From Cyanobacteriota bacterium (lineage in GTDB: Bacteria > Cyanobacteriota > Cyanobacteriia > PCC-6307 > Cyanobiaceae): DNA of 64,000 nt. Below the pieces are notes generated by a model. It was not told the DNA's origin. It did no database searches and saw only the letters and a program-made list of their open reading frames with translations. A program made the translations under genes and the position numbers. Each line of letters starts with the position of its first letter. Position 1 is the first letter of the stretch. Below, in pieces: positions 18,188 to 62,745 of this stretch. The stretch spans positions 352,001 through 416,000 of the forward strand of contig JBJOMY010000002.1 of the NCBI GenBank assembly GCA_046052125.1, written 5' to 3'.

Positions 18188-19588
<1,401 letters not shown>

Positions 19589-19668
19589 TCTGTCTCGTTG
19601 ATCGAGAATCGTCCCCGAAATTCCTTAACAGTGTCAATCCGATACTGGCAACCTGATGTGTGCGTCTG

Positions 19669-22684: not shown

Positions 22685-23550
22685 TATTCAAAACCATGTG
22701 ATTTAAAATAGTCTACAGTGCGCTTGATTCCTTCCTCAATGCTGACAAGTGGCTGCCAGCCTGTAGCTGCTTTCAGCTTCTCATTGCTGCCCTGCAAATG
22801 AGAAACCTGGTCTGCTCTGAATGGCACCTGCCCGTAGCGCGGCCGACCGTTTTCGGGGTTGATGTAGGCATAAATCTGATCAACAACGTCGCGCAGCTTT
22901 ACTGGTTTGTCAGACGAGAGGTTGTAGGTGCTGTCTTTGGGAGCCAGGCAAGGGGACAGCATTCGTACGCATCTGCATAGGTCTTCGATATAGACATAAT
23001 CCCAATACTGAGTACACTCCGTTAAGTTGGGTGATTCGCCCTGTAGCGCGCACTTAATCACATAGGGCATGAACCAGGCTGGGTTATCTCCGGGGCCGTA
23101 GGGATCATAGAGGCGAAGCCAGCATAGGTTGAAGCCCGCTTGATCAAGGCAGCTTCTGAAGATGTTGTGGCATCTGACCTTGATTTCTCCGTAGAGAGTT
23201 GTTGGTGTTGTCGGATAGGTTTCGTCGACACGGATATTTGGATTTCCATATTCTGCTTGAGAGCCAAAAGCGACGATGGTCTTGACGTTATACGCTTCAG
23301 CTATTCTGATCACCTGAGCAGTGATGTCTTCGTTGATTCTTTGTTCGTCGGAGTTTCTGTGCTTGCCAAGCACGCCAGCCCAGGCTGAATGAATCAGGAT
23401 TGGTTGCTCTTCAAACACTGCATGTCTGAGCTTCCCTGCAGCAAGTTCAGCCCTGCTGATGCATGTGACGTGGTCGCCAAGATTGGTTAGATAATGAGCC
23501 AAGGAGTTGCCGACAAAGCCAGTCGACCCCGTGATCAAATAAGTGGTCAT
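22684..23550 (-). CDS. NAD-dependent epimerase/reductase (extended SDR)
   Basis: ITGSTGFVG, GSQAEYG, YGEIK (YxxxK), YGPGD motifs. Confidence 0.9.
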   Translation of the reverse strand: MTTYLITGSTGFVGNSLAHYLTNLGDHVTCISRAELAAGKLRHAVFEEQPILIHSAWAGVLGKHRNSDEQRINEDITAQVIRIAEAYNVKTIVAFGSQAEYGNPNIRVDETYPTTPTTLYGEIKVRCHNIFRSCLDQAGFNLCWLRLYDPYGPGDNPAWFMPYVIKCALQGESPNLTECTQYWDYVYIEDLCRCVRMLSPCLAPKDSTYNLSSDKPVKLRDVVDQIYAYINPENGRPRYGQVPFRADQVSHLQGSNEKLKAATGWQPLVSIEEGIKRTVDYFKSHGFE

Positions 23551-24662: not shown

Positions 24663-25624
24663 GGCTCAAGAAGCTTGTAGAGAGAGACGCACTGATCGAG
24701 AAGTTGGACGGCGTGATTGTCTGCCTTGGCTAGCGTTCGTTTGGCTTCAGCAATATAGTTTTTGTGCGACTGTGCACTCCAGCTCATAATACCACCGAAT
24801 GGAAAGCCGATGTCGCCCATGGCTTCCCCTAGAAGCGTGGGTGTTCGAGTGGTGGCGTTCATGGTGCTGATGCCAAGAAAATCGTGAGCTCGCGCTATAT
24901 TCTCTGCCTGCTGATTGGCGTCGGCTGAAGAGCGGAGAATCAGCACATGCTCAGGATGCTGTTGTTTGAGCTGAAGTGATGCCTGGTTGATGCGGAGCCA
25001 GCGCTCCAAATATCTGTGCGGCGGAATCTTATTCCTGGCATGCATGTTGCCAAATCCCCATCTAGGGTCGATGACAATCACGATTGCCCGACTGAAAACG
25101 CTCCAGAATTGTGGCCTCTCCCAGTCGAGTGCGGCGCAGGGGGAGTGAATGAGGTTGATGGAGGCATGGTGTCCGGCAAAGACGGCTTTCATCGATTCGA
25201 TGTAAGCTAGGACGGCATCAGTCTGCAGAAGCTGTCTGTGGTCTGGTGTCTGGACTGCGAGGCTATCGACGAAGGATCTGGCCCGGTCTTTGTACTGCGA
25301 GAGTGCCTCAAACTTTCGTGCTGCCAGCCAGTCGTTTAGTTCGGATTCGGATGGATCCAGCGCTCTTTGGTTCAGTGGCTCCTGCTCTAGGACCGCCTGA
25401 AATTGCTCTGGATCTCGAAATACGTTCCAGCGGTATTTGCCGGAGACTAGGCTGGGTTCGTTCTGGATCCCGACCGCGGCTTCTGCGCCTAGTAGCAACT
25501 CAAACGGAAACGCAAAGACCTGATCGGCACCGTCCATCAAGCGCATGAATCGTCCGGCGCCAGAGTCATTCCAGGCGGTGACAAGAACGTTCTTGTACTC
25601 AGGTCTTGTCATGGCATTGCTCAT
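24659..25624 (-). CDS. Divergent sulfotransferase-fold protein
   Basis: VLVTAWNDSGAGRFMRLMDG...FPFE resembles a degenerate 5'-PSB region; IVIDPR resembles the RDPR 3'-PB motif. Confidence 0.5.
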   Translation of the reverse strand: MSNAMTRPEYKNVLVTAWNDSGAGRFMRLMDGADQVFAFPFELLLGAEAAVGIQNEPSLVSGKYRWNVFRDPEQFQAVLEQEPLNQRALDPSESELNDWLAARKFEALSQYKDRARSFVDSLAVQTPDHRQLLQTDAVLAYIESMKAVFAGHHASINLIHSPCAALDWERPQFWSVFSRAIVIVIDPRWGFGNMHARNKIPPHRYLERWLRINQASLQLKQQHPEHVLILRSSADANQQAENIARAHDFLGISTMNATTRTPTLLGEAMGDIGFPFGGIMSWSAQSHKNYIAEAKRTLAKADNHAVQLLDQCVSLYKLLEP

Positions 25625-26690
25625 AGGCCGTGAGATCCGCTAAGCACTTGTCCAAGGCTGAAGCACCTGAAAGGGTTTCGCGATACCAGTTGACCGTGTG
25701 TGCCAGTGTGGTCGCGAAATCCCAGCGCGGTTGCCAGCCGAGTCTGTGCTGCGCTTTATCGATCTGCAGATGGAGAAGATTGGCTTCATGGGGTGCTGAT
25801 GGATCACTTTGATCCAGCCACTTCCCTGGCCAGTGTCGCAGGATCGTGTCAACCAGTTCAACGACTGGGCGATTGCTGGCCAAGCTGGGTCCGAAGTTGA
25901 AGGCCTCGCAGGGCGGGCTGTCATCTTCCGCAAGCGCTTCGGCGAGGCGCAGATAACCGGCCAGCGGTTCGATCACATGCTGCCAGGGCCGCGTGGCCCT
26001 GGGATTGCGCACGGGGATCGCTTCCCCCCTGGCCAGGGAGCGGATCGCGTCCGGCACGATCCTGTCGGCTGCCCAGTCGCCACCACCGATCACATTGCCG
26101 GCCCGTGCAGTGGCGATTCGTAGATGGGGCGTCTGATGGGATGCCGAACCACAGAAGCTGGCTCGCCAGCTGGCAATGGCCAGTTCGGCGCCTGCTTTGC
26201 TGGCGCTGTAGGGGTCATGGCCACCCAGGCGATCGGGTTCGCGATAGCCATAGGGCCACTCGCGATTCTCGTAGACCTTGTCGGTTGTAACCATCACCAC
26301 GGCACAGGTGTGCTGGAGTGGTCTCAGGGCTTCGAGTAGATGCAGGCTGCCCATCACGTTGGTCGCCCAGGTGCCGAGTGGATCGGCATAGCTGAGCCGT
26401 ACCAGTGGTTGTGCCGCCAGATGCAACACCACATCCGGTTGAGCCTCCTGGACCAGCTGCTTGAGGGTTGCCAGGTCGGCCAGATTTCCGATGGTGTGAT
26501 GCCAGCCCTCGCCGGCTGGCCTGGCCTGAGCCAGCTCGCGGAAGAGGTTCGGTTGGGGGTCAGGCTCCAGTGCGTAGCCCCATACCTCAGCCCCAAGCTG
26601 CTGGAGCCAGAGCAGCAGCCAGCTGCCCTTGAAGCCCGTGTGCCCTGTGAGCAGAACGCGCTTACCAGCCCAGAATGCAGCGTTCGTCAT
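25599..26690 (-). CDS. rfbG: CDP-glucose 4,6-dehydratase
   Basis: FWAGKRVLLTGHTGFKGSWL, HLAAQPLV, TTDKVY, DPYSASK, RPWQHV motifs. Confidence 0.96.
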   Translation of the reverse strand: MTNAAFWAGKRVLLTGHTGFKGSWLLLWLQQLGAEVWGYALEPDPQPNLFRELAQARPAGEGWHHTIGNLADLATLKQLVQEAQPDVVLHLAAQPLVRLSYADPLGTWATNVMGSLHLLEALRPLQHTCAVVMVTTDKVYENREWPYGYREPDRLGGHDPYSASKAGAELAIASWRASFCGSASHQTPHLRIATARAGNVIGGGDWAADRIVPDAIRSLARGEAIPVRNPRATRPWQHVIEPLAGYLRLAEALAEDDSPPCEAFNFGPSLASNRPVVELVDTILRHWPGKWLDQSDPSAPHEANLLHLQIDKAQHRLGWQPRWDFATTLAHTVNWYRETLSGASALDKCLADLTAYEQCHDKT

Positions 26691-27460
26691 CACCACACCT
26701 TCCAGGGTGCTTTTGCGTTCGCCCAGAGATCTTCTAGGTAGACCCGATCCCGAAGTGTATCCATCGGTTGCCAGAAACCTTTGTGGTGATAAGCGGTGAG
26801 CTGGCCATCGGCCGCCAGTCCGCGCAGTGGTTCCTGCTCCCAGACGGTGCTATCCCCCTCGATCCGATCAATCACCTCCGGTTCAAGTACAAAGAAACCA
26901 CCATTGATCCAGCCCCCATCGCCTAGGGGCTTTTCCTGGAAGCCTGATACGGCCGAGTTCTTGCCAAATTGAAGAGCGCCATAGCGTCCCGGTGGTTGAA
27001 CGGCTGTCACGGTTCCAAGCCGGCCATGATCCTTGTGATGGGCGACGAGGGCACTGATGTCGACATCGGCCACACCATCGCCATAGGTGAAGCAGAATGT
27101 TTCATCGCGCACGTAATCGCGCACGCGTTTGAGCCGCCCACCGGTCATGCTGGTTTCACCCGTATCCACAAGCGTGATCTCCCAAGGCTCAGCCTTTTTG
27201 CGGTGGACTTCCAGCGAGTTCATGCGCATGTGGAACGTTACGTCGCTCATGTGTAGGAAGTAATTTGCAAAGTATTCCTTGATCACGTATCCCTTGTAGC
27301 CACAGCAGATCACGAACTCGTTGATGCCGTGGGCGCTGTAAATCTTTAGGATGTGCCAGAGGATGGGGCGTCCGCCAATCTCCACCATCGGCTTGGGGCG
27401 GAGGCTGGTTTCTTCGCTAATGCGGGTACCTAGGCCACCGGCCAAGATGACGGCTTTCAT
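26690..27460 (-). CDS. rfbF: Glucose-1-phosphate cytidylyltransferase
   Basis: MKAVILAGGLGTRISEET, PKPMVEIG, TYGDG, GFWQPMDTLRD motifs. Confidence 0.97.
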   Translation of the reverse strand: MKAVILAGGLGTRISEETSLRPKPMVEIGGRPILWHILKIYSAHGINEFVICCGYKGYVIKEYFANYFLHMSDVTFHMRMNSLEVHRKKAEPWEITLVDTGETSMTGGRLKRVRDYVRDETFCFTYGDGVADVDISALVAHHKDHGRLGTVTAVQPPGRYGALQFGKNSAVSGFQEKPLGDGGWINGGFFVLEPEVIDRIEGDSTVWEQEPLRGLAADGQLTAYHHKGFWQPMDTLRDRVYLEDLWANAKAPWKVW

Positions 27461-28076
27461 TGCTATCTTTTTGATCAATCTTATCATGCCAATCGGCTGC
27501 CTTGTTCCTGCCATCTAGTTTTAGCTGGCTGATCTCGCGTTAGTTGTCGGAGGGATGTATTTACATGTTTCGCCGCCGTTGATATCGGCAGCCTTTTCCA
27601 GGCAGAGGACTTGACCATTATCTCTTAATAGTTAAAGTTCTCTGCTTTGGTCGTTCACCAGTGGAATGCGGCCTGACTACTCACCAGCACTCACGCGAAC
27701 TGGACTAGCAAAGGGGTTCATTTCGCTCGTCCTATTGGCGATATCATTAAACACACATTGCCCAATTGAGTCGTGTGGTGCCCTTACCTTTTGCTAATGA
27801 GTTCACGTGACCTACCTGGTTAGAGGGTTCCCATCCATCTACATAGTCTGGAAGTTCATCCAATCTATATTCACAGGTTCTAGTCTGCCTGCGGACCCTT
27901 TGTGCTTTTGCTGCTTGTATGTAGATCCCAATGTTGCCATGCAATGACTTAATCTGTCCACTCTGCTAATGTTTCTGCCCATAAACCACATATGCCGAGT
28001 GTTAACTCGAATATAAAAATCTACATGGAGCCAATCACAGAAGAACCGATTTAATCTGGCCGGATATCCTATGATT

Positions 28077-29015
28077 CTATCGGTTTGTATAATGTGTGGG
28101 AGATGCTGACGCAAGTACGCGAATGTAAGCGCTAACGGGGTTGTGATCTAAGCCTCGGACTGAAAGAAGTATATCTTTGCTTTTACACGAGTAAACAACC
28201 TTCCTGTAATCGGAAAAGTCGATATTGTATCTAATGACTTTAGCGCTATCGTAGCTTTCTTCGAGTTGACGGCTTCCTAAGTTTACAATCCCTAATCCAG
28301 AGTTCTTAGTACATCCTACCCCAACTGATACACTAGAGGACGGACCACCAAATGCTACCAAATCGAAAAGTATTGGGATACTAGGTTGAGATTGGCGAGG
28401 TATGGAGGCAGAAGTCATAGCACGTGTTATCGATCTCGTAACATCTCTCGGTTTCAAATCAACCGAGTACGGTCGGAAGCTGACTCGTTCCGATGAGTAT
28501 GGTTGTCGTCGCTTGTAGTCAGACTTTAGTTTCCATATATCCATCGGAGGTATAGATAGTCTGTCGTAAGGCTGGTCAAATTGCGAGGGATCTACTCCCT
28601 TTTGTTTTATACTATACATATCGCCTAACAGAAAGGAATTCTGCTGAAGAAACTCTCCAAAGTTTTCTTTTAAATAACCATGGGGTCCAGCTTGTGAGTG
28701 GGTAACAACAAGCTTTGGAGGATTGCTAAACATCTTTTCAAGTAGACATGCTGGGGAGCCATTAAAAAGCTGGAGTGCCGTACAGATGTTAAGTGAGTAA
28801 TCAATAGGCTTTGCATTAAGCACTGCGTAATAACTTGGGTAGCTCCATCCATATGCAAAAATATGTTTGCCAGAGAGCATCACGTGGCTGCTTTTCTTGT
28901 TTTCACTAAGAGTTCTTTTTAGGACCAAAGTGCTTTGGCCCAAGTGTAGGAATAAGTAGTTTGATGCAACGCTAAAGATTGCAAAAAAGTAGGCAAAGCG
29001 CAGGAAGACGCTCAT
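28077..29015 (-). CDS. Hypothetical protein with an N-terminal TM helix (possibly the C-terminal part of the upstream membrane protein)
   Basis: 312-aa AT-rich ORF in the same frame as 29019-30248, separated by one TAA. Confidence 0.6.
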   Translation of the reverse strand: MSVFLRFAYFFAIFSVASNYLFLHLGQSTLVLKRTLSENKKSSHVMLSGKHIFAYGWSYPSYYAVLNAKPIDYSLNICTALQLFNGSPACLLEKMFSNPPKLVVTHSQAGPHGYLKENFGEFLQQNSFLLGDMYSIKQKGVDPSQFDQPYDRLSIPPMDIWKLKSDYKRRQPYSSERVSFRPYSVDLKPRDVTRSITRAMTSASIPRQSQPSIPILFDLVAFGGPSSSVSVGVGCTKNSGLGIVNLGSRQLEESYDSAKVIRYNIDFSDYRKVVYSCKSKDILLSVRGLDHNPVSAYIRVLASASPTHYTNR

Positions 29016-29018
29016 GAC

Positions 29019-30248
29019 TTAATTATGTAGCGACAAATCTCTGGAGCTGCCTGTTTCTGATATGTGTGTGCAAGGGGTATACGCAAGCGCTATCAAAGCC
29101 AGCTGAAACAAATAGAATACAGAATATACCGTGTAGTGCTGGAACCCCCTTAGTGGAAGGTATATTGTTATAAAATAGCAGCCTGTGCAAGTTGTCATAA
29201 GAAGAATCCTTGCATATCTTTGTGTGATGTGACCATATCTACGTATGACATTCGTGTTTGTAAATTCTGAGATCAGCTTGTCCTTCATTTGGTTCGTCAC
29301 AAACCAAGCGCACAGTATATAATACAATAGAATAGTGCCAGCTGAATCTAATGCAAATATGATCGAGGAATGCGCGCCTCCGTCTATATATGAGATGCTC
29401 TTAAGAGCTGTTTCCAGCGAGCTTGAAGAAAACGAATCTATTCTAAGATAGTCTCTTACAATCGATTCTGCTATAATGTAGAACGATGAGTCTGCTGATC
29501 CCCTATATGCGCCAAGGTCAATTAAAGCAAATAGCACAAATATGCAAATAGCATGGACACTTGCCCTCTTAACTGGCGTTGACCCCATCGGAGTCCTCGG
29601 TTCCTGACCTGGTAGAAAGGATAGTATTAGAACCGTGGATAAAATTAGTGGGGCTATCTGATACTTAGTGTGCAAAGCTGCTGCAAAGCCAAGCGATGAC
29701 AGGACTAGGCTAGTCAGAGGCGGAAGTGTATTTCTCATAAATATAGAAATTGAGAGTAATGCAAATGCAATAGAGCAATATTCTCCGTTTGGCGAGTAAA
29801 AATCTAATCCTTTCGAGATAAGTGCCGGCCCTAGGGTCAGAATCGTGAGTAGAACTGGAAAGAGATCTGATCTAAAGAATAAGCCGTACGCGTAGTAGCT
29901 AGCCAGCGTTATCAAGAATATCGTGACTCCTAGTAGAAGTGTAATGGTCAAGTGGTCGGCAAATTGACCTCTTAGGCCCACTGCTAGGCTAATCTTTTGT
30001 AATATCGATAGAGCGAGCGGCTGAATAAACCCAAGTGTATACTGGCTTTGAACTCGAGAGAGGTCAAAGCAAAAACCATCGCATATATATCTTCTGGCGA
30101 TGTCGAGACTGGCATATTGATCTATATTAAAAAGCTTCCCTAATGACCTAAGCATGAAAATTCCAGAAAAAACCAACGCAACGGCTAGCCCTTTCTGATT
30201 GCTATGTGTCCGTGCATGATAGAGACTTCGTCCTTGTCCGGCATTCAC
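29019..30248 (-). CDS. Polytopic membrane protein, GT-C/GtrC-like candidate (start uncertain)
   Basis: Many hydrophobic segments; NGEY and TKYQ patterns; located in a glycan island. Confidence 0.55.
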   Translation of the reverse strand: MNAGQGRSLYHARTHSNQKGLAVALVFSGIFMLRSLGKLFNIDQYASLDIARRYICDGFCFDLSRVQSQYTLGFIQPLALSILQKISLAVGLRGQFADHLTITLLLGVTIFLITLASYYAYGLFFRSDLFPVLLTILTLGPALISKGLDFYSPNGEYCSIAFALLSISIFMRNTLPPLTSLVLSSLGFAAALHTKYQIAPLILSTVLILSFLPGQEPRTPMGSTPVKRASVHAICIFVLFALIDLGAYRGSADSSFYIIAESIVRDYLRIDSFSSSSLETALKSISYIDGGAHSSIIFALDSAGTILLYYILCAWFVTNQMKDKLISEFTNTNVIRRYGHITQRYARILLMTTCTGCYFITIYLPLRGFQHYTVYSVFYLFQLALIALAYTPCTHISETGSSRDLSLHN

Positions 30249-30308
30249 GGCTTCGGTGGGAGTATGTTATTGCTTCTAGTCTACTGCATATCTCCTTCTC
30301 TCTCCTGT

Positions 30309-30353
30309 CCGACGACAATCTGGCTGAGGGGCACTCAGCCAGATTGTCGTCGG
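30309..30353. repeat. Perfect 20-bp inverted repeat with a 5-nt spacer
   Basis: CCGACGACAATCTGGCTGAG-GGGCA-CTCAGCCAGATTGTCGTCGG. Confidence 0.95.
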
Positions 30354-30809
30354 GCTGCAGTCCTTTTTGGTCTGAAGGCTCCAAGTCATGAGCACCAGAG
30401 GCGACGGCAACCTGCTTCATGGCCATGTGCCTCTCCCCTGATGATTTAATCTCGACCGTTTCTCCGATGCGGCGCGATTGCAGTTGCACGACCCCACCGT
30501 CACGATTCGAGTGAGTGCGGCCACCATATGGGAGTTCTGCCTCGATCTTCACGAAGGAAAGCCCGGAGCAGGACAAAGTGATTAAGGAATTGCCTTCCAT
30601 TCTGCTGACTGTTTGATTGCAGTCGTCGCGAATCTCCATCGCCGACGGGGCTTGAGAGCCAGTGTCTTCAGCCAGCTCCACTGAGATCCGTCTGATCGCA
30701 TGCTTGCCTCCTTAGCTGAGTTGGAAGCCCTTGTGTTGATGACCGCTGATGTGCACCTTGACAACTTTACCTTTCCAATCCTTTGATGAGTGGAGCGTAA
30801 ACGTCTGGC

Positions 30810-41454: not shown

Positions 41455-41488
41455 CGCTGCTGGTTCGCGTGGACAAGAAAAAAGGGGT

Positions 41489-41885
41489 GAAAGCAGGACG
41501 TAAGCCGGGTTCTGTTCCCTGCCAGGGGCAGGGGGCGATCATCTGTCTGGGACCACCGTTACCGGTGGCCTCGAGCGGCGCGATTGAACGGGACGGGTGT
41601 CATGGCCAACCGTTGTCCCTGGGCCTTGCTCCCAGCCGGGGTTTACCGAGCCAGCACCTCTCGATGCTGCTGGTGCGCTCTTACCGCACCTTTGCACCCT
41701 TACCTGTGCACGGGCTGCGCCCGGCCATCGGCGGTGTGTTTCTGTGGCACTCTCCTCACGGTCACCCGCACTGGGCGTTACCCAGCAAGCCTGGCCATTG
41801 GGGAGCCCGGACTTTCCTCAACCGGTCCGTTCCACCAGCCCGAGGGCCTGGGCGTTGCCCGGTCGCGATCACCTCGCCTGCTTTC
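41489..41885 (-). ncRNA. rnpB: RNase P RNA (type A)
   Basis: Minus strand carries GAGGAAAGTCCGGGC and AACAGAACCCGGCTTA; P1 helix GAAAGCAGG/CCTGCTTTC. Confidence 0.97.
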
Positions 41886-41920: not shown

Positions 41921-41994
<74 letters not shown>

Positions 41995-50798: not shown

Positions 50799-50830
50799 AT
50801 TTCTGAGGCGCTCGGGGCTTCGGGCCGGCT

Positions 50831-51172
50831 CTACTCGTTGCGGCTGGCCGCTAAGCCCCAGAACAAGCCATAGAGCGCGGCCATCAGCCCCAGGCTGGTG
50901 CCCCAGCCGGGACCCAAAGTCCAGCCCAGCACCAGGTTGATCACCACGCCGGCTCCGAGGGCCAGCAGCAGGCTGCTCACCACCAGGGCCACCAGCTGGC
51001 TGTCTTCATCGAGCGGCCCGGCGGCGAGGGCCTCTTCGAGGCGGGCGAGCGGAGCGCTCAGCGGCAGATACACCGCCAGGGCCCATAGGGCGCTGCCGGG
51101 GAGCAGCAGGGCCCAGCTCTCGGGGATCCAATCGGGCACGAGGGCGGGAGGCGGTGTGGATCTCCCTAGCAT
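50831..51172 (-). CDS. Small membrane protein (start 51172 or 51139)
   Basis: Hydrophobic ORF filling the gap between two plus-strand genes. Confidence 0.65.
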   Translation of the reverse strand: MLGRSTPPPALVPDWIPESWALLLPGSALWALAVYLPLSAPLARLEEALAAGPLDEDSQLVALVVSSLLLALGAGVVINLVLGWTLGPGWGTSLGLMAALYGLFWGLAASRNE

Positions 51173-51196
51173 CGGCCACCCACCCTTCAGTTGCCG

Positions 51197-52075
51197 GTGA
51201 CCGTTGCAGCGGGATGGACCTTCGAAGGCCATCCGATCCATTGCCTCAGCCGCCAGCCCGACAGCGTGGCGGCGGGTCCGGCAATCCTGCTGGTGCACGG
51301 CTTCGGCGCCTCCACCAACCACTGGCGCTTCAACATCCCAGCGCTGGCTGAGCACTATGAAGTGCATGCGTTGGATCTACTGGGTTTTGGTCGCAGTGCC
51401 AAACCGGAAGGCCCCCGCTACGGCGGCGCCCTCTGGCGCGATCAGCTGGTGGCCTACGTGAAGGAGCGCATCGGCCGTCCCACGGTGTTGGTGGGTAACT
51501 CGTTGGGGGGCTATGCCGCCCTGGCGGCCGGAGCTGCCCTGGGAGATCAGTGCGCCGGGGTGGCCTTGCTGAATGCGGCTGGTCCGTTTTCTGATGAGCA
51601 GGGTGAACCCAAGGGCTGGGGCGCGATCGCCCGCCGCACCATCGGCAGCGCCCTGCTCAAGAGCCCGTTGCTGCAGCGGCTGCTGTTTGAAAACATGCGC
51701 CGCCCCGCGAATGTGCGCCGCACCCTCAAGCAGGTGTACATCGACAGCACCAACGTGGATGACGAGCTGGTGGAGTCGATCCTGCGGCCCAGCCGCGATC
51801 CCGGAGCCTTCGGGGTGTTTCGCACCGTGTTCGACATTCCCCGCGGCCAGCCCCTTGATGAACTGTTCGCCGAGCTGCAGGCGCCGCTGCTCTTGCTGTG
51901 GGGCATCCGCGATCCCTGGATCAACGCGGCCGGCCGCCGCGGCGCCTTTCAGCGTCACGCTCCCGCCAACACCACCGAGGTGGTGCTCCAGGCCGGCCAT
52001 TGCCCCCACGATGAGGTGCCGGATCAGGTGAACCGGGCCATGTTGGAGTGGCTCGCCGGCCTGCCGGCGCGATGA
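51197..52075 (+). CDS. Alpha/beta fold hydrolase
   Basis: LVHGFGAS, DLLGFG, GNSLGG nucleophile motif, GHCPHDE. Confidence 0.92.
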   Translation: MTVAAGWTFEGHPIHCLSRQPDSVAAGPAILLVHGFGASTNHWRFNIPALAEHYEVHALDLLGFGRSAKPEGPRYGGALWRDQLVAYVKERIGRPTVLVGNSLGGYAALAAGAALGDQCAGVALLNAAGPFSDEQGEPKGWGAIARRTIGSALLKSPLLQRLLFENMRRPANVRRTLKQVYIDSTNVDDELVESILRPSRDPGAFGVFRTVFDIPRGQPLDELFAELQAPLLLLWGIRDPWINAAGRRGAFQRHAPANTTEVVLQAGHCPHDEVPDQVNRAMLEWLAGLPAR

Positions 52076-52788
52076 CCGAGCCGCCCGGGGCGTTGCTCTA
52101 CCGGCCCGTGCTCTGCCTGCCGAAAACCGGCAGCACTAGCCTCACACTCTGGCTGCGGAGCCAAGGAGACCCGGCACGGCACGAATGGCAGGTCCAGGAG
52201 CTCCTGCACCTAGGAGCCCTGTCCCATCGCCCTGATTTTCCAGAGCGCCGGCAGGCGTGGTTGCTTCAACGGGTCCGCGGGCTGGAGGGTGCCTGGGACG
52301 TCACCACCTCCCTCTATGCCGTGCTCTGGGATCTCTCCGCCTCCGGCGTTCCCGGGTTGCGGATCCAGCCTCGTTGGCTCTGCCGCTCCCCCGGCCCCTG
52401 GCTGGCGAGCAGCGTGGCTTGGAGCCTTCGCTTTGCTGCTGACCCCTTCCGCCGCCGCTGGTTGGGCTTGCATCGCGGGTTCGTGTTTCGTAGGGATCCG
52501 GCCCTGGCGGCCTTGATGCCCGCCAATCCCAGCAGCCCGCAGCAGTTGAGCGCCTACTGGCTACCCGTCTGGCTGACGTTTCAAACCCTGGTGCAGGAGC
52601 GGCAGCAGTCTTATCAGCTGACCGAGCGGCTGCCGGCCCGCCATCACGCCAATGCCAGCCCACCCGGCTCCATGAGGCTGCCGCCATGGCCTGAGCTGCC
52701 ACGCCTCAGCGGCTGTTTCCAGACCGATGGCCCCTGCCTGGAGGCTGTGAGGCGCTGCTGTCTTCAGCTGGGCCGGATCACGGGGTGA
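52072..52788 (+). CDS. Sulfotransferase-like protein
   Basis: LPKTGSTSL...RHE 5'-PSB-like motif and CRSPGPWLAS (RxPxxWxxS); ATGA overlap with the hydrolase stop. Confidence 0.6.
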   Translation: MTEPPGALLYRPVLCLPKTGSTSLTLWLRSQGDPARHEWQVQELLHLGALSHRPDFPERRQAWLLQRVRGLEGAWDVTTSLYAVLWDLSASGVPGLRIQPRWLCRSPGPWLASSVAWSLRFAADPFRRRWLGLHRGFVFRRDPALAALMPANPSSPQQLSAYWLPVWLTFQTLVQERQQSYQLTERLPARHHANASPPGSMRLPPWPELPRLSGCFQTDGPCLEAVRRCCLQLGRITG

Positions 52789-53555
52789 GCCTCCCCCTGA
52801 AGTGGATCCCCAGGCGCCAGTTGCGGGAAGTAGATCTCGCGGATGCGGCGCCGCAGCGTGGCGCCTCGAGCTGGATTGAAGCCGATGGGGTCGGGATTGA
52901 GCCTGGCCCCGTCTGGAATGAAGCAGGCCGCCAGGGCCAGTCGGGGCTCCGCCATCCGGTTGGGCAGGCCGCAGTGCCACACCACGCCGTTGTGCAGATC
53001 CACATCCCCCGGCTGGAAAGCGCTGGTGCTCGTCATCGGCATGCCGCTTCGCAAGAGCAGCGGCTTCAGTTCGTTCTCGTCGTTCAGGCAGCCCTGCTGG
53101 GGCTCCAGACGAGCCGTGCCTTCCGCGTAATAGAGGCCGCTGCTGTCCTGCACCGGTGTGAACGGGATCCAGCAGGTGAGGATCGGCGCATCGCTGGGGA
53201 TCACGTCCTTGTCGCGATGCCAGCTGGTCATGGCAGCGCCGGGTTGCTTGCGCAGCACGCCGAAGTGCAGCGGGCGCAGGGCCTGCCAGCCCGTGGCCCT
53301 CGCCACGAGCTGGGGTAGTTCACCGCTGGTGAGCAGTGCCCAGATGGCGGGGTGCTTCGGGCTCAGTCGCCATTCGCATCCGTGGGGATCCGCACCGGTG
53401 CGCTGCAGTTGGGCCGCGTTGCCGCTGCTGCTCAGCTGTTGCTGCCAGAGCTCCTCTGCTTCCTGACGCACAGCGGCGAGCCGCTCGGCCGGCCATAGCC
53501 CATCGCAGCGCCCATGGCCGCTCTGCTCCAGCTGCCGCTGCAGGTCAGTCGGCAT
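52764..53555 (-). CDS. PhyH-family Fe(II)/2OG dioxygenase
   Basis: KQPG...WHRD, TCWIPF, PGDVDLH...WH...PR motifs. Confidence 0.85.
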   Translation of the reverse strand: MPTDLQRQLEQSGHGRCDGLWPAERLAAVRQEAEELWQQQLSSSGNAAQLQRTGADPHGCEWRLSPKHPAIWALLTSGELPQLVARATGWQALRPLHFGVLRKQPGAAMTSWHRDKDVIPSDAPILTCWIPFTPVQDSSGLYYAEGTARLEPQQGCLNDENELKPLLLRSGMPMTSTSAFQPGDVDLHNGVVWHCGLPNRMAEPRLALAACFIPDGARLNPDPIGFNPARGATLRRRIREIYFPQLAPGDPLQGEAHPVIRPS

Positions 53556-54267
53556 TGCGCTGCAGCGTGTCGAGATTCCACTGCCGCACCTGGTTGATCA
53601 GTGGCGCCATGGCGCCGCCGCCTGCCTTGGCGATGGGGTTGAGCACCAGCGGGGCCGTGAGGTAGTTCACGATCAGTGCCTGCCGCTCGCTGGGTGCCGC
53701 CATGGCCAGGGAGCCATGCAGGGTCCAGAGCTGGTGCAGGGTTGCATCCCCCAGAGACAGCGGTGCCGCGACAACGGCGGTGGTGTGGGGTTCGACGCCA
53801 TCCGGCCAGCGGTCGCTCGTGAGTGGTTGTTCGATCAGGCAGAACCGCTGGGTGCCGGCGAAGAACACCAGCGGAGCGTTGTCGCCGTCAATCGGATGCA
53901 GCGGCACCCAGAGGGTGAAGGCCTGCAAGCTGTCGCTGGGGATGAACCGGCCGTCCTGGTGCCAGGCCGTGCCGTTGCAGCCAGGGGTTTTGCAGTAGAG
54001 CGTGGTGCCCAGCAGCTGGATCTGGCTGCTGCTGCGGCCCACATGCCGAGCCAGCCGAGCCAGCAGGGTGGGATGGGTGAAGATCTCGTGCAGGGCCGGG
54101 ATCTCGCGGTGCAGGAACCAGAGGGTTTCGGTTTGCGCCTGTTTCCGCTGCATGTAGGCCTGCATGGCCTCTCGCTGCGCCAGCAGCTGGTTGATCGCCT
54201 GGGGGCTGAGGGCCCCAGGCAGATGGCAGAAGCCATCGCGTTGCAGCTGGGCCTCAGACAGGTGCAT
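53545..54267 (-). CDS. PhyH-family Fe(II)/2OG dioxygenase
   Basis: QRDGF start, KTPG...WHQD, TLWVPL, GDATLH...LHGS...ER motifs. Confidence 0.88.
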   Translation of the reverse strand: MHLSEAQLQRDGFCHLPGALSPQAINQLLAQREAMQAYMQRKQAQTETLWFLHREIPALHEIFTHPTLLARLARHVGRSSSQIQLLGTTLYCKTPGCNGTAWHQDGRFIPSDSLQAFTLWVPLHPIDGDNAPLVFFAGTQRFCLIEQPLTSDRWPDGVEPHTTAVVAAPLSLGDATLHQLWTLHGSLAMAAPSERQALIVNYLTAPLVLNPIAKAGGGAMAPLINQVRQWNLDTLQRNAD

Positions 54268-55114
54268 GGGCCAGAAGGTAGAGCTTGAGCTGCACCCCAG
54301 TGCCGTCGCCGGCTCCATCGTTGGGATTCGCCACCAGCTTCAGGTGGCTGAACCCTGGCTGGAAGCGCTCCCCCAACCGGCGGCGATGCCACTGCCGTGT
54401 GCGCTCCAGGCTGCCGTGGGGGCACCAGGGTGTCAGCAGTTCCAGCAGGGCCAGCGCAGCGGGGTCGGCTTCGCCACTGCCGCGCTGCAGCCGCTCCGTT
54501 GGATACAGCTCCAGCCCCAGCCGTGGTTGCGGTGTGCTGTACCAGTCGAAGCAGGCCGACCAGGCCAGCTGCCCGGGCTGGGCCAACAACAGCGGCTCCA
54601 CACCCGCCCGCTGGAGCAGGGCAACGGCGGCGGGCAGCTGCTGCTGCAGCCAGCCCCACTGCGCCGCTGCCGGACCCACCAGGTTGCAGCGCCAGCTGGG
54701 GTGTCGCTGCCCCAGCCTCGGTGGAAACAGGCCCAGATGGGAGATCCGCACGCCGGTGGGTAGCGGCAGCGTGGCCAGGGGCTCCAGCGGTGGCGCATCC
54801 AGCAGCGTGCCCAGGGCTGCAGCCAGCGGCGCCAGTTCCCCCTGCGTGGCCGGGCGCTGCAGGCGCAGAAACAACCCGGGCCAGCCCTCGCCGGGCTGAT
54901 CGAACTCCAGCCAGGGATCTGCCAGCAGATCGGGCCACTGCCGCAGGCAGCTGTTCACCAGCGCGAGCAGCGGTTGCAGCTGCTCCCAGCCCGGCTGCTG
55001 GGCCACTGCCTTCGGATCCGGCAACGGCATCGACAGATCCGGGATCCGGATCGGTTCGTGGGCCTCGCTCAGTCTGTATTCGAATAGTCCTAGGTGCCCG
55101 AGCGGAGGGATCAC
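54254..55114 (-). CDS. Hypothetical protein, possibly with an ABBA/PT-barrel prenyltransferase-like fold
   Basis: Motif string WLEFD..P.LF, HLGL..R, PRLGLE.Y, SHLKLV...LKLYL; GTG start at 55114; fold is inferred. Confidence 0.5.
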   Translation of the reverse strand: MIPPLGHLGLFEYRLSEAHEPIRIPDLSMPLPDPKAVAQQPGWEQLQPLLALVNSCLRQWPDLLADPWLEFDQPGEGWPGLFLRLQRPATQGELAPLAAALGTLLDAPPLEPLATLPLPTGVRISHLGLFPPRLGQRHPSWRCNLVGPAAAQWGWLQQQLPAAVALLQRAGVEPLLLAQPGQLAWSACFDWYSTPQPRLGLELYPTERLQRGSGEADPAALALLELLTPWCPHGSLERTRQWHRRRLGERFQPGFSHLKLVANPNDGAGDGTGVQLKLYLLAHAPV

Positions 55115-55124
55115 AGCGGTGCCC

Positions 55125-55889
55125 TCACACGTAGGCCAGTAGGTGGCGCTGGTTGTGATCCAGCCGTAGAAACCCCCCCAGCACCAGCCGCGGCTGCGAT
55201 CCCTGGCAGGGCCGAATTCGGTGCCAATGCTCACCGGCGTTGAACAGCAGTGCCTCCCCTGCCCGGGGCGGCACCATGTCCACGGATTGCAAGGGCTGCG
55301 CCGCAACCGGTGGATTGCTGCCGCGATGCCGGAACAGCTCCAGTTCCCCGCCGCTGCTCGGAGCCTGGAGGATGTAGAGGAAGCTGAGTTGAAACGCCGG
55401 CTCCAGCGCCAGCGGGCCCAAGCTGTTGTCTTGAACGCCCAGACGACCGGTCTCGATCAGGTTGTGGCGGTTCCACACCTGTTCGCAGTGGGGATCGATG
55501 CCACAGCCCGGGTCCATCACCCGCAGGGCCCAGCACGGCAAGGGGAGCCCATCGGCGCTTTGCAGCCGTTGCAGTGGGCGCTCGAACAGGCTGTGGAGCC
55601 AGCTGCCGAGCGCGGGTAGTAAGAGCTGATCCACGGCCAGACAGGCTTCCTTAGGCCGACTGTCCAGGCTCGCCTGGTAGTGCTCCGCCGTGGCGCCCAC
55701 GCAACTGCGGGGCAGGGTCCAGCCCCAGGGGGTGCGTGCCCAGCCGGCAGCCTGAGGCTCGGGCTGTTTCAGCCGCTCCAACAGCGGTTGGCAGGCGTTC
55801 ATCAGCTCGGCGTGCGGCAGCAGCGCGGCGTGGCGATGCAACGCCAGTGCTCCCGCTAACACGGCCTCGAGGTTGCCATTGCGCGCCAT
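55125..55889 (-). CDS. Fe(II)/2OG oxygenase (prolyl-4-hydroxylase-like C-terminal domain)
   Basis: PHCE, LSFLYIL..P..GGEL, PRAGEALLF...WHRI.P..G...R motifs. Confidence 0.8.
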   Translation of the reverse strand: MARNGNLEAVLAGALALHRHAALLPHAELMNACQPLLERLKQPEPQAAGWARTPWGWTLPRSCVGATAEHYQASLDSRPKEACLAVDQLLLPALGSWLHSLFERPLQRLQSADGLPLPCWALRVMDPGCGIDPHCEQVWNRHNLIETGRLGVQDNSLGPLALEPAFQLSFLYILQAPSSGGELELFRHRGSNPPVAAQPLQSVDMVPPRAGEALLFNAGEHWHRIRPCQGSQPRLVLGGFLRLDHNQRHLLAYV

Positions 55890-55921
55890 CGGCGCAGGCT
55901 ATGGGAAGTCGGCTGCTTCGC

Positions 55922-57979: not shown

Positions 57980-59344
57980 ATGGCAGAGCGGCGCAAGGTC
58001 ATCGTTCTCGATGACGATCCCACCGGGTCGCAGACGGTGCACAGCGTGCCGCTGCTGCTGCGTTGGGATGCAGACAGCCTGCGGCGGGGCTTGCGTCACC
58101 CCTCGCCGCTGCTGTTCGTGTTGGCCAACACCCGAGCGCTCGAGCCCGAAGCCGCGCGGGAGCGGGTGCGGCAGATCTGCCGGGGGCTGCGGGTGGTGCT
58201 GCAGGAGCTGGAGGCGGCCGGGGAACTGGATCGCTGGCTGATCGTGAGCCGGGGCGACTCCACCCTGCGGGGCCATTTCCCGCTGGAGGTGGAGGTGATC
58301 GCCGAAGAGCTCGGCCCGTTCGATGCCACCCTGCTGGCCCCTGCCTTCCTGCCCGGCGGCCGCACCACCCGCGGCGGTGTGCACTATCTGCATGGCGAGC
58401 CCGTGCACACCAGCCCCTTTGCGCGCGATCGCCTGTTTGGCTTTAGCAGCAGCGCGTTGCCTGAGTGGGTGGAGGAGAAAACCCGGGGTGTGATCCCTGC
58501 CGGCACGGTGGAGCGCTTGGATGGGGCCGAGCTCGATGGGCCTGCCGCAGCCTTGCAGGCTCGCCTGGCCTGTTTCAGCGCCCAACGCGTTGTGGCGGTG
58601 GATGCGGAGCGGCCTGAACAGTTGGCGGCCCTAGGAGAAGCGGTGTGGCGCAGCGAGCGGCGCCTGCTGTTCCAATCCGCCGCCAGCCTGATCAATGGTC
58701 TGGTGCCCCTGCCGCCCCAACCCCTCGATCGCGCTGGCCTGGCCGCCCTGCGCCGCTGCGGGGCCCATGGGGAATGGTTGCCCGTGCTGGTGATGGTGGG
58801 ATCCCATGTGCCCCTGGCGGATCAGCAACTGGAGCCATTGCTGCAGGAGCCCGCCTGTGTGGGGGTGGAGATCCCGGTGGCCAAACTGGCCCGGGTGCTG
58901 GAGGGCCCGGCAGCACTGCAGCTGCTCCGGTCGCTGGAGCAGAGCTGGCTGGAGCAGCTGCAGGCTGTGCTGCATCAGGGGCGCACCCCGCTGCTGTTCA
59001 GCAGCCGCGGTGAACTGGTGTGTGCTTCAGCCCAGGAGCGGCGACGCTTCGGCCTGGAACTGGCGGCCCTGATGGCACGCCTGGCCGCGGCCCTGGCCCC
59101 GCAGTTGGGACTGATCATCAGCAAGGGCGGCATCACCACCCACACCCTGCTGGCCGAGGGCTTGGGGCTGGATTGGGTGGAGTTGCAGGGGCAGCTTCTG
59201 CCGGGACTGTCGGTGGTGCTCACCCCGCCCGCGGCCACGGTTCCGGGCTTGCCCGTGATCACCTTCCCGGGGAACCTGGGCGATGCCGGCACCTTGCGCC
59301 AGGCCTGGCAGTTGATGGTTCAGGCGGATACGGGCTGCCCGTAG
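57980..59344 (+). CDS. Four-carbon acid sugar kinase family protein (DUF1537)
   Basis: VLDDDPTGSQ, SRGDSTLRGH, SKGGIT, FPGNLG motifs. Confidence 0.9.
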   Translation: MAERRKVIVLDDDPTGSQTVHSVPLLLRWDADSLRRGLRHPSPLLFVLANTRALEPEAARERVRQICRGLRVVLQELEAAGELDRWLIVSRGDSTLRGHFPLEVEVIAEELGPFDATLLAPAFLPGGRTTRGGVHYLHGEPVHTSPFARDRLFGFSSSALPEWVEEKTRGVIPAGTVERLDGAELDGPAAALQARLACFSAQRVVAVDAERPEQLAALGEAVWRSERRLLFQSAASLINGLVPLPPQPLDRAGLAALRRCGAHGEWLPVLVMVGSHVPLADQQLEPLLQEPACVGVEIPVAKLARVLEGPAALQLLRSLEQSWLEQLQAVLHQGRTPLLFSSRGELVCASAQERRRFGLELAALMARLAAALAPQLGLIISKGGITTHTLLAEGLGLDWVELQGQLLPGLSVVLTPPAATVPGLPVITFPGNLGDAGTLRQAWQLMVQADTGCP

Positions 59345-60684
59345 CGCTGCCACAGGTCTCCAGCGATACCCCCAAGCGCCACGAGGGCCAGGGCCAGCAG
59401 GCTGTCGGTGGTGTCGCTGATTACGGCTCCCACCAGAAAGGCGAGCGAACCGGCGCCCACCAGCCAGGGCGTCACGGGGTAGCCCCAGCTCAGAAAGGGC
59501 CGCGGCAGTTCCGGTTGTTGCCGGCGCAGCTGGATCTGGGCGGCGATGCCGCTCAGGGGCAGCCCCACATACAGGAAGGCTCCCATCCCTAGCAGGTGAT
59601 CAAAGGAACCCACCAGCACCAGCAAGGCCGCGCTGCCACTGGTGAGCAGCAAGGCGGCCGCCGGCGTGCCGCCCGGGTTCACCTGGCTGAGGACAGCCGG
59701 CATCAGGCCATCCCGGCTCAGGCCAAACAGGATTCGGGGCGCTGCCATCACCACGGTGTTGATCAGGCCCAGCAGCGACACCAGGGCCACGGCTGTGATC
59801 AGCTGCGCCCCTTGGCTGCCCAGCAGGCGGCGGGCTGCCTCGGCCGCCGGCAGCGTGGCCTGGCTGAGCGCTTGCATCGGCAACACGTGCAACAGCGCGC
59901 CGTTGATCAGCAGATAGAGCGCCAGCACAGCCAGCACGCCGCCGATCAGGGAACGGGGCAGATCACGGGCCGGTTCGCTGAATTCCTCGGCGAAATACAC
60001 CGGTGAGGCCCAGCCATCGAAGGTGGTGACCACGGCCTGCAGCGCCAGCACAGCCCCGATCCACAGCGCCGATCCCTGGGGCGGCAACACAGTGGGATGG
60101 CTGATGGCTGCATCTGGTGCAACGGCGGGCAGCAGAAAGCTGGCGGCCGCCAGCCCCAGGAAGGCCAGGGCCTTCATCAGGCTGAGCAGCTCCTGGCTGG
60201 CACCTCCGGCACGCACGCCCAGCCACTGGATGGCGCTGAACAGGATCAGCACCGCCAGGGCGATCGCCTGCCCCTGCCATGGGGCCGCGGCCTGTTCAGG
60301 GATCCACTCCACGATCAGGTCGCCCACGGTGGTGGCCACCCAGGCCAGGCCGATGCAGTGGGCCAGCCAGTCGGTCCAGCCCACCAGCCAGCCGGCCCGG
60401 CGCCCGAAGGCCTGCTCGGCGTACACATACCAACCCCCGGCCCGCGGCAGGCTGGCCGCAAGCTCGGCGATGCAGATCGCGCCGAGCAGGGCGTAGAGCC
60501 CCCCGAGCACCCAGGCGCCCAGCACCAGTGGTGCCGTGGCCAATTGCGCTGCCACCAGCCCGGGTGTGCGCAGGATGCCAGCGCCGATCGTTCCCCCCAC
60601 GGAGCCGGCCAGGCCGAAGGCCACACCGAGCACCGAGAGCAAGCCGCCGCTGCTCCGCTCCTCTGGCGGCGGTGGGTTGCTCAA
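59320..60684 (-). CDS. APC-family amino acid permease
   Basis: GGTIGAGI, ELAASLPRAGGWY, FDGW...AEE, RPFLSWGYP motifs. Confidence 0.9.
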   Translation of the reverse strand: MSNPPPPEERSSGGLLSVLGVAFGLAGSVGGTIGAGILRTPGLVAAQLATAPLVLGAWVLGGLYALLGAICIAELAASLPRAGGWYVYAEQAFGRRAGWLVGWTDWLAHCIGLAWVATTVGDLIVEWIPEQAAAPWQGQAIALAVLILFSAIQWLGVRAGGASQELLSLMKALAFLGLAAASFLLPAVAPDAAISHPTVLPPQGSALWIGAVLALQAVVTTFDGWASPVYFAEEFSEPARDLPRSLIGGVLAVLALYLLINGALLHVLPMQALSQATLPAAEAARRLLGSQGAQLITAVALVSLLGLINTVVMAAPRILFGLSRDGLMPAVLSQVNPGGTPAAALLLTSGSAALLVLVGSFDHLLGMGAFLYVGLPLSGIAAQIQLRRQQPELPRPFLSWGYPVTPWLVGAGSLAFLVGAVISDTTDSLLALALVALGGIAGDLWQRYGQPVSA

Positions 60685-62031: not shown

Positions 62032-62745
62032 TCAATAGTGGTAACCGGCCAGATCGATCTCGCGCTCAAAAATCTTGGCAATTCTCGAGGCTTGAGTGTG
62101 GGTTAAAACGTCTTGGTAGGGACGTTGTTCACGGCGAAACTGACGTTTGGCATGGGGGAGCAGGGGATTGCCTTGCAAATTCAGCTCTTCGAACAAACGG
62201 TTGAGTTCTGCTTGGGCATCTTCATAGCGGCACAGGCGATGGACAGCCAAGTTGCCGTTTAAGCAATAGATGGCTTCACTTTGTGCGGCCGCCCGTTGCA
62301 GATGCGGACCGTCGATGAAGGCATCAAGGCTTTCGGGTTCGGCTTGGTCTCTGATGTGCCAGAAGTAGTGCGAAATCGCGCGATCCCAAGGGTTGCGAAC
62401 GAAGCAGAAGCGGAAGTAGTTGTCCCACTGATGCTGGGGGAGATACTTCAGTGTTTGTTCGGCTGTGATGTGGGTGTGGAAGCCGATCCGCTTTAAATCG
62501 CTGTTCATCGACTTCCCGGTGATTTTGCGGCGCAGCCGCAGCTTCAGATAGGAGGGCGTGTTGTACCAGGGGATGAAATGCCTGGGCGATGGATAGCCCA
62601 GTTCTCGGCGAATGCGCTCATCCCGCCCCAGCGGCGTGATCACATCCTTCCTGTTGCAGGTGCTCGAGAGGGCGATGCCGATGGAGGTGGATGCCGTTTT
62701 CCGGTTCGCCAGGAAGATGAAACGTTTGCTATGGCTGATGATCAT
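62032..62745 (-). CDS. Sulfotransferase family 2 protein
   Basis: MIISHSKRFIFL..RKTASTS and FCFVRNPWDRAIS motifs; more AT-rich than neighbours. Confidence 0.85.
   Translation of the reverse strand: MIISHSKRFIFLANRKTASTSIGIALSSTCNRKDVITPLGRDERIRRELGYPSPRHFIPWYNTPSYLKLRLRRKITGKSMNSDLKRIGFHTHITAEQTLKYLPQHQWDNYFRFCFVRNPWDRAISHYFWHIRDQAEPESLDAFIDGPHLQRAAAQSEAIYCLNGNLAVHRLCRYEDAQAELNRLFEELNLQGNPLLPHAKRQFRREQRPYQDVLTHTQASRIAKIFEREIDLAGYHY

Follow-up and report, generated by a model that had tools for sequence, protein, structure and literature searches.

The stretch analysed here (the window) comprises 64,000 nucleotides of contig JBJOMY010000002.1 (positions 352,001 to 416,000; assembly GCA_046052125.1) from a freshwater picocyanobacterium and carries six close-packed genes at 51.2-55.9 kb, five of which, designated A to E, form the cassette considered here together with a coupled hydrolase gene. 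What is new is a short, unannotated offshoot of the tryptophan (Trp) prenyltransferases of peptides synthesized ribosomally and modified post-translationally (RiPPs), in an unreported combination with three Fe(II)/2-oxoglutarate (2OG) oxygenases and a sulfotransferase-like protein. The minus-strand operon begins with E (55125-55889, 254 aa), an Fe(II)/2OG oxygenase of the WelO5/prolyl-4-hydroxylase (P4H) type, and continues, after a spacer of 10 nt (55115-55124), with D (54254-55114, 286 aa), a protein with the predicted alpha-beta-beta-alpha (ABBA, or PT-barrel) prenyltransferase fold, whose GTG start is backed by the N-termini of its 8 homologues, which share the same starting point. It is followed by two PhyH-type Fe(II)/2OG dioxygenases, C (53545-54318, 257 aa, or 240 aa with a start at 54267) and, last in the operon, B (52764-53555, 263 aa). 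C overlaps D by 14 nt if translated from the ATG at 54267 and by 65 nt if translated from the ATG at 54318, and overlaps B by 11 nt (53545-53555). The plus strand carries an alpha/beta hydrolase (51191-52075, 294 aa; Pfam Abhydrolase_6, 88.6 bits) followed by A (52072-52788, 238 aa), a divergent protein with a predicted sulfotransferase fold. The TGA of the hydrolase is overlapped by the ATG of A in the ATGA at 52072-52075 (translational coupling), and A and B are convergent, with 3' ends that overlap by 25 nt (52764-52788).

To the right of E, on the opposite strand, an aldose-1-epimerase-like gene (Pfam Aldose_epim) starts at 55901, the two divergent start codons being 11 nt apart (55890-55900). 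Owing to this short distance, either the operon promoter lies inside the neighbouring coding sequence or the epimerase-like gene begins further on, with the ATG at 55922. A scan of 50.5-57 kb returned no promoter-like (sigma-70-like) site and four terminator-like sites where 2.5 were expected, of which none is intergenic, and Rfam and tRNA scans gave no match within the cassette. A preceding sequence-only reading had described the same arrangement, with a 10-bp gap, overlaps of 14 and 11 bp, an ATGA junction and a converging sulfotransferase-like gene, and had placed the block between a hydrolase and a mutarotase; coordinates, spacing and the Pfam assignments of both flanking genes agree with that description. 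Comparison with the orthologues in a Vulcanococcus metagenome-assembled genome (MAG) gave ratios of nonsynonymous to synonymous divergence (dN/dS) of 0.09-0.27 for the hydrolase, A, B, C and D, with 0.27 for D, indicating purifying selection, and the GC content at third codon positions (GC3), 0.79-0.85 in the cassette genes measured (E not among them), is like that of the host genome. Given this purifying selection and host-like codon composition, the cassette genes are real.

Protein D and its RiPP-associated relatives

Protein D has no Pfam or NCBIfam match at an E-value <=1e-1 (including to PTase_Orf2, Trp_DMAT and DUF5838) and no PDB sequence match, whether the query was the single sequence or its profile, and a feature search of the ESM Atlas led to clusters with PTase_Orf2, Trp_DMAT or DUF5838 in just 12-41% of members. 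Its assignment as an ABBA prenyltransferase-fold protein is supported at the level of the modelled fold. The AF2 model (predicted local distance difference test [pLDDT] score 87.5; predicted template modelling [pTM] score 0.86) has ten strands alternating with helices, and Foldseek gave 30 matches in the PDB at E-values <=1e-3, with all 34 rows listed being ABBA aromatic prenyltransferases. The best match among those listed was 5-DMATS (6zs0, E-value 1.3e-6), with PriB and IptA next and DMATS1, AmbP1, PatF, NphB, PirF and LimF further down. Sixteen residues are invariant in all 12 sequences compared, comprising six from the D family and six from a wider family described below: E12, D26, W68, E70, D72, P79, G128, R133, R142, D190, G200, E202, H257, K259, K277 and Y279. 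As every invariant position is kept, D retains the conserved residues of that wider family, and the pairs E70/D72, H257/K259 and K277/Y279 are spaced i, i+2 on predicted strands, as residues lining a barrel would be. ABBA prenyltransferases bind the diphosphate through basic and Tyr residues of the barrel lining and use a carboxylate as base, and R133, R142, H257, K259, K277, Y279, E70, D72 and E202 would be candidates for these roles in D.

The wider family was reached by a profile search with D against 1.84 billion representatives, which returned 29 proteins at E-values <=1e-3, seven of them at <=1e-10. The 22 weaker matches are mostly about 343-377 aa in length and, save for sub-threshold noise (in the repetitive P0027) and fusion domains, fall in no Pfam family. 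In two of them, P0030 (719 aa) and P0043 (688 aa), the prenyltransferase-like part is followed by a C-terminal squalene-hopene-cyclase-like stretch, which scores 27.8 and 20.5 bits, respectively, against a cut-off of 26.1, so that the second falls below it. An alignment of 19 wider-family proteins (A4) matched that of the D family (A1) with an hhalign probability of 99.7 and an E-value of 7.5e-27 over 261 columns. D covers only columns 37-342 of the 363-column wider-family profile. The D subfamily is devoid of the N-terminal 35-45 residues present in all six wider-family sequences examined and of an insert of 15-25 residues ahead of strand 9, which carries Trp and Phe in the RiPP-linked members (6/6).

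When four wider-family proteins were used as tblastn queries against annotated plasmids, four loci were recovered and all four lie within RiPP clusters; D, E and A themselves had no tblastn match in 72,556 plasmids, and the loci thus came from the wider-family queries only. On plasmid pn1 of Nostoc sp. UHCC 0926 (L002), the prenyltransferase-like gene, whose product matches A4 with an E-value of 1.7e-57, accompanies LanM, four precursors (two Nif11, two NHLP) and a PoyD-like radical S-adenosylmethionine (SAM) epimerase. Acaryochloris pMB07 (L003) encodes a radical-SAM C-methyltransferase, a Nif11 precursor, a prenyltransferase-like gene split in two and a SAM methyltransferase, and Azospirillum sp. 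B510 pAB510a (L004) two NHLP precursors, a prenyltransferase-like gene, TfuA, YcaO and LanM. Pseudanabaena galeata pPg_03 (L005) carries LanM, a Nif11 precursor, a metallo-beta-lactamase-type hydrolase, a 2OG-FeII_Oxy_3 oxygenase and a 597-aa fusion of a prenyltransferase-like domain to 2OG-FeII_Oxy_3, the Pfam family also matched by E. The distance from precursor to prenyltransferase-like gene is about 1-3.4 kb in all four loci, which may already stand in the list of mined biosynthetic gene clusters in the supplement of PMC12715784. Two further features of these plasmids were observed. The Azospirillum cluster (prenyltransferase-like gene at 6615-7658 of its locus) is unannotated and both of its NHLP-type precursor cores end in Trp, which suggests a thioamidated, prenylated lanthipeptide as the product. 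The Pseudanabaena fusion (9962-11755 of its locus; N-terminal prenyltransferase-like, C-terminal 2OG-FeII_Oxy_3) is annotated merely as a '2OG-Fe(II) oxygenase', and the 598-aa protein adjoining it falls in no family.

Two enzymes of this kind have been described in print. MppC from Moorena producens is an ABBA prenyltransferase of a lanthipeptide cluster that geranylates the indole C5 of one Trp, requires the Nif11-like leader in full and rejects free L-Trp, and a Phe near its position 340 docks into the structured nucleus of the leader (PMC12715784). According to a review, NctPC is an ABBA prenyltransferase with low similarity to the cyanobactin enzymes, fused to an MstE-like cyclase, and geranylgeranylates Trp (PMC13290415). 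D belongs to this RiPP-associated Trp prenyltransferase superfamily, described in 2024-2025, as a short subfamily of it. The earlier label 'prenyltransferase-like' is thus upheld, as the ABBA barrel is modelled with confidence and D is homologous to the RiPP-associated family, while the 'undescribed pathway' claimed with it needs narrowing: the superfamily is already described in NctPC and MppC, and literature searches found neither the short D subfamily nor this gene combination.

Oxygenases, sulfotransferase-fold protein and conservation of the gene set

B and C exceed the Pfam cut-off for PhyH (PF05721, 22 bits) with 33.0 and 69.9 bits, respectively, and are 28% identical to each other (E-value 7e-11). 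The metal-binding triad and 2OG-binding Arg of C can be located at H120-Q-D122, H201 and R212 by alignment to MysH, and those of B at H113-R-D115, H194 and R205 by alignment to C. MysH is also the closest solved relative of C (E-value 9e-11), followed by SnoN, EvdO1 and SnoK, and B is related to SnoK (E-value 1e-4), then PtlH and KanJ. Protein E scores 47.2 bits with WelO5 (PF22814), over profile positions 171-271 of 277 only, and 31.0 bits with 2OG-FeII_Oxy_3, the cut-off being 27 bits for both, and its C-terminal 50 aa align to WelO5/WelO15 PDB chains with E-values of about 1e-6 (WelO5, 2e-6). In WelO5 halogenases, the carboxylate ligand is replaced by Gly or Ala (HxG/A), leaving a site for the halide. 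E and its 14 homologues have H134-C-E136, H223 and R234 invariant (15/15), which rules out the halogenase that the Pfam name WelO5 would suggest; with its carboxylate ligand present, E should be a hydroxylase-type enzyme. Three Fe(II)/2OG dioxygenases, two of them PhyH-type with intact HxD...H triads, had been proposed from the letters alone and are recovered by Pfam and the located triads. E, called P4H-like at that time, is indeed of the WelO5/P4H type, with HxE rather than HxD as its ligand motif.

Protein A has no Pfam or NCBIfam match at an E-value <=1e-1 and no PDB sequence match, single-sequence and profile queries giving the same outcome. An AF2 model built on its homologues reached a pLDDT of 81, and in the ESM Atlas A resembles Sulfotransfer_4/3/1 clusters (feature score 0.96, 183 shared features, TM-score 0.67). 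The motifs C-L-P17-K18-x-G20-S21-T22-S23 and R105-S-P-x-P-W-L-x-S113, invariant in 11/11 sequences, are taken by us to fit the 5'-phosphosulfate loop (PKxGxT/S) and the 3'-phosphate motif (R...S) for 3'-phosphoadenosine-5'-phosphosulfate (PAPS). Fold, language-model features and motifs together make A a predicted sulfotransferase fold, probably active, in keeping with the 'sulfotransferase-like' of the first description, although the support is weaker than for D. No NCBIfam model reaches its cut-off with the coupled hydrolase, which is possibly either an accessory of the cassette or a core gene, and the hydrolase-A coupling is also present in the Vulcanococcus MAG. A second sulfotransferase (62032-62745, minus strand, 237 aa; Sulfotransfer_2, 40.4 bits) with a lower GC3 (0.68) was observed in the window, its ORF overlapping the upstream end of a GlcF-like open reading frame (ORF) by 50 nt; A has no sequence relationship to it, and the idea that the two are relatives was discarded.

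The cassette proteins are rare. Among 5.8 billion clusters, D occurs in 9 (its own included), A has 10 homologues and E has 14, and for all three the homologues split in the same way into a tier at about 85-90% identity and another at about 50%. A scan of 185,579 species genomes with two exact peptide patterns produced 41 matches, of which one is a relative, namely a contig (L001) of the Vulcanococcus MAG; because exact patterns were used, more distant carriers may have been overlooked. That contig contains, in order, the last 66 codons of the E orthologue, a 10-nt gap, D, C, B, A (again convergent) and the hydrolase coupled to A, with the same flanking genes, and its cassette proteins are about 86-96% identical to those of the window. 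Being such a close relative, it tells little about selection for the gene set. Within the family searches, P0004 (D) and P0048 (E) share a longest-contig value of 5817, P0006 (D), P0055 (E) and P0014 (A) have values of 4555, 4555 and 4554, and P0054 (E) and P0016 (A) values of 3944 and 3943. Conservation of the five-gene set thus holds for one close relative and is circumstantial in the clade at about 50%. Synonymous divergence (dS) from the MAG is 0.23 for A, 0.18 for B, 0.12 for C and 0.34 for D, and 0.61 for the hydrolase, 0.72 for the PEMT-like gene and 0.51 for the phosphoketolase (flanks 0.42-0.72). Across 50828-55326, A-D thus lie two- to five-fold below the flanks in dS, but because the identity profile is mosaic this is no more than a hint that the cassette was exchanged more recently.

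A Pfam scan of 57 window ORFs revealed no domain of a nonribosomal peptide synthetase (NRPS), polyketide synthase (PKS), LanM, peptidase or exporter and no isonitrile synthase or Stig-type cyclase, the only ketosynthase being FabF-like. Phmmer searches with seven Nif11/NHLP precursors gave no match among stop-to-stop ORFs, 1142 from the window and 136 from the Vulcanococcus contig. The absence of NRPS, PKS, LanM and an evident precursor peptide asserted by the sequence-only reading is therefore borne out over these ORFs. Its further assertion that the window holds no transporter is incorrect, given an amino-acid permease (59320-60684), 3.4 kb from the cassette, and a solute-binding protein (2065-3435), neither of which adjoins the cassette.

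Possible substrates and rival explanations

It is proposed, with a probability of roughly 0.4, that E-D-C-B constitute one operon built around D, that the indole substrate is free and leader-independent, and that A sulfates the product. D would be a stripped-down descendant of the leader-dependent MppC/NctP-type Trp prenyltransferases that has lost both the extra N-terminal residues and the Phe-rich insert, and would prenylate an indole with a prenyl diphosphate as donor, the likeliest acceptor being free Trp or a Trp-derived small molecule, with no leader. The hydroxylase-type E and the PhyH-type B and C would then oxidise the prenylated product, and A would O-sulfate a new hydroxyl with PAPS, either as the last decoration or, more speculatively, to provide a leaving group, possibly with assistance from the hydrolase. 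This order of steps is suggested by enzyme logic only, D and A are presumed from their modelled folds to be catalytically active, and A and the hydrolase would take part in the pathway of E-D-C-B. One operon is favoured by the 10-nt spacer and the overlaps of 14 and 11 nt, and the rarity, identity tiers and longest-contig values that A, D and E have in common hint at co-location. The prenyl acceptor of D is probably the indole of Trp, since its fold neighbours (free-Trp prenyltransferases) and its sequence neighbours (peptide-Trp prenyltransferases) both indicate indole. That the substrate would be free rather than peptide-bound is suggested by the loss of the N-terminal extension and the insert, which favours leader independence, and by the finding of no precursor or macrocyclase here when all four reference loci keep their precursors within a few kb. 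A small molecule is further favoured because small molecules are the substrates of the enzymes of solved structure nearest to B, C and E (MysH, SnoK/N, PtlH, KanJ and WelO5), and the affinities of A count in the same direction.

Several observations weigh against this free-indole proposal. The Foldseek TM-scores of D are modest (0.41-0.48), and the best E-value of A is only 1.4e-2, although sulfotransferases occupy all of the top 16 rows, at probabilities of up to 0.98. The D family matches MppC and NctPC through context, fusion architecture and published descriptions, not through their sequences, and the correspondence of the insert missing from D to the leader-docking Phe site of MppC would follow from position alone. 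E can probably work without D, because E-like genes (43-46% identity) occur in marine Synechococcus RS9909 and BS56D and none of the 8 other homologues of D carries an NCBI source label. Neighbourhood of the cassette genes in the clade at about 50% identity is circumstantial and rests on equal longest-contig values. Ancestry argues for a peptide substrate, since all four examinable wider-family loci are RiPP clusters and MppC refuses free L-Trp, and the pairing of a prenyltransferase with 2OG-FeII_Oxy_3, even as a fusion, occurs in the bona fide RiPP cluster of Pseudanabaena, where another such oxygenase gene stands just before the fusion. This ancestry and this pairing lend substance to a trans-acting cassette. 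D would then prenylate Trp of a ribosomal peptide encoded elsewhere, either a lanthipeptide or proteusin with a Nif11/NHLP leader or a mature peptide that has no leader; hydroxylation, of residues or of the prenyl chain, would fall to E, C and B, and sulfation of a hydroxyl or Tyr to A. Such a cassette is quite possible: D is homologous to the wider family (hhalign, above), whose four plasmid loci all lie in RiPP clusters, and MppC depends on a Nif11 leader (PMC12715784). A Nif11-type precursor encoded elsewhere, as envisaged by the sequence-only reading, is a serious option, with Nif11/NHLP precursors beside the wider-family gene in 4/4 loci. Picocyanobacteria are known to scatter precursors far from the lanthionine synthetase, as in the case of the prochlorosins, which also counts for a peptide. 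On the other side stand the 64 kb in which no precursor was found and the 57 scanned ORFs devoid of LanM, peptidase and exporter domains, the missing extension and Phe-rich insert of the D subfamily, and the small-molecule enzymes that are the nearest solved relatives of the PhyH/WelO5-type oxygenases. In its more specific form, a RiPP tailoring island in which a leaderless MppC/NctP descendant, the oxygenases and the sulfotransferase act in trans on lanthipeptide-type peptides, the idea is a little less probable; literature searches found neither a ribosomal peptide that is prenylated, hydroxylated and sulfated nor such tailoring uncoupled from its precursors.

The place of A in the free-indole pathway can also be questioned, because A lies on the opposite strand and is coupled through the ATGA to a hydrolase with core-genome-like divergence, and may therefore be part of a different unit. 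If so, the E-D-C-B operon and the hydrolase-A pair would merely abut and the pathway would have no sulfation step, an arrangement with which the dS of the hydrolase (0.61), resembling that of the flanking core genes, and the unrelated sulfotransferase at 62032-62745, an example of such genes occurring singly in the window, are compatible. It is nonetheless considered improbable, as the rarity and the two identity tiers of A parallel those of D and E, its homologues match those of D and E in longest-contig values (4554 against 4555/4555; 3943 against 3944), its dS of 0.23 resembles that of B-D (0.12-0.34) and not that of the hydrolase, and A overlaps B by 25 nt. Least likely, at long odds, is a set with no biosynthetic role that would salvage, catabolise or detoxify an exogenous aromatic or isoprenoid by hydroxylating and conjugating it, D being an inactive barrel or a binding protein. 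Catabolism and conjugation are also among the functions of PhyH enzymes and sulfotransferases, the ABBA protein PatF, among the fold matches listed for D, is not known to be active, and the cassette sits amid genes of central metabolism. Against such a role, D retains every residue invariant in the RiPP-linked family and is under purifying selection, to our knowledge all ABBA-barrel proteins are prenyltransferases or relics of them, and the extreme rarity of the genes speaks against a general salvage function.

The Trp-lipidating ABBA prenyltransferases of lanthipeptides, described only in 2024-2025, are leader-dependent, and D is a natural minimal version without their extra segments. If D acts on free Trp, a RiPP enzyme would have been recruited to small-molecule metabolism and would offer a compact, possibly promiscuous, prenylation catalyst; if it acts on peptides in trans, prenylation and sulfation would join the peptide chemistry of picocyanobacteria. 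Since no Pfam or NCBIfam model exists for the D family, mining tools based on models are unlikely to flag it, and the motif set and alignments obtained here make it findable.

Genomic surroundings and relation to known systems

The surroundings of the cassette belong to core metabolism and include phosphoketolase, acetate kinase, glycogen phosphorylase, GlcE/GlcF-like genes, a four-carbon acid sugar kinase-type protein (SBD_N/NBD_C) and isocitrate dehydrogenase. The GC content of the window is about 0.64-0.70 outside a low-GC island at 19600-30700 (0.42-0.56 against about 0.67), which encodes a GT2 glycosyltransferase, a GtrA-like protein, a split transketolase-like pair, nucleoside-diphosphate-sugar epimerases/dehydratases, a DUF4915 protein, a nucleotidyl transferase and several ORFs without a family, and looks like a horizontally acquired surface-glycan island. 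Elsewhere, a thiamine pyrophosphate riboswitch (18039-18134) precedes thiC (18194-19588), and a class A RNase P RNA (41486-41884) is followed by tRNA-Arg(CCT) (41921-41994). An EgtD-type histidine-specific methyltransferase (8041-9027, minus strand; Methyltransf_33, 340.9 bits) hints at synthesis of ergothioneine or hercynine, and the ORF beside it (7082-7951) falls in no family.

For A, the weak fold matches include SgdX2 (E-value 0.038), the olefin synthase (OLS) sulfotransferase of Synechococcus PCC 7002 (0.096) and the CurM sulfotransferase (0.42). These represent activating sulfotransferases with an alpha/beta-hydrolase partner (the sulfotransferase-thioesterase units of CurM and OLS, and SgdX2), from which the present pair differs in consisting of separate genes, with the hydrolase preceding the sulfotransferase, and in having no PKS among the 57 ORFs scanned. 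The CurM thioesterase has an alpha/beta-hydrolase fold, as does the coupled neighbour of A. B and C have their Pfam family, HxD...H triad and 2OG-binding Arg in common with MysH, SnoK/SnoN, PtlH and KanJ, although identity is only about 20-25% and the substrates of these enzymes (mycosporines, anthracycline sugars, a sesquiterpenoid and an aminoglycoside, respectively) give no clue to those of B and C.

MppC and NctPC resemble D in having an ABBA barrel, and the prenyltransferase-plus-cyclase architecture of NctPC, as outlined in the review cited above, resembles that of the profile matches P0030 and P0043. The family of these two enzymes is about 343-383 aa in length whereas D has 286 aa and is without the N-terminal extension and the Phe-containing insert. 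Precursor and macrocyclase adjoin the RiPP-linked prenyltransferases, while no precursor was found in the 64 kb around D and no LanM among the 57 ORFs scanned, and D, unlike the MppC/NctPC family, is partnered by three 2OG oxygenases together with the sulfotransferase-like A.

In structure, the best matches of D are the bacterial enzymes 5-DMATS SCO7467, PriB, IptA and CymD (E-values 1.3e-6 to 3e-3, probability about 1.0), with which it shares no detectable sequence similarity; TM-scores are 0.45-0.48 and D is 60-100 aa shorter. Free-Trp ABBA prenyltransferases need no leader and often belong to clusters of very small size that include one or two oxidases. In the hapalindole/welwitindolinone pathways of cyanobacteria, WelO5 differs from E in having HxG in place of the invariant HxE and matches only the C-terminal third of E, yet the pairing there of the ABBA indole prenyltransferase AmbP1 with a WelO5-family enzyme, acting on a free-standing substrate, is like that of D with E.

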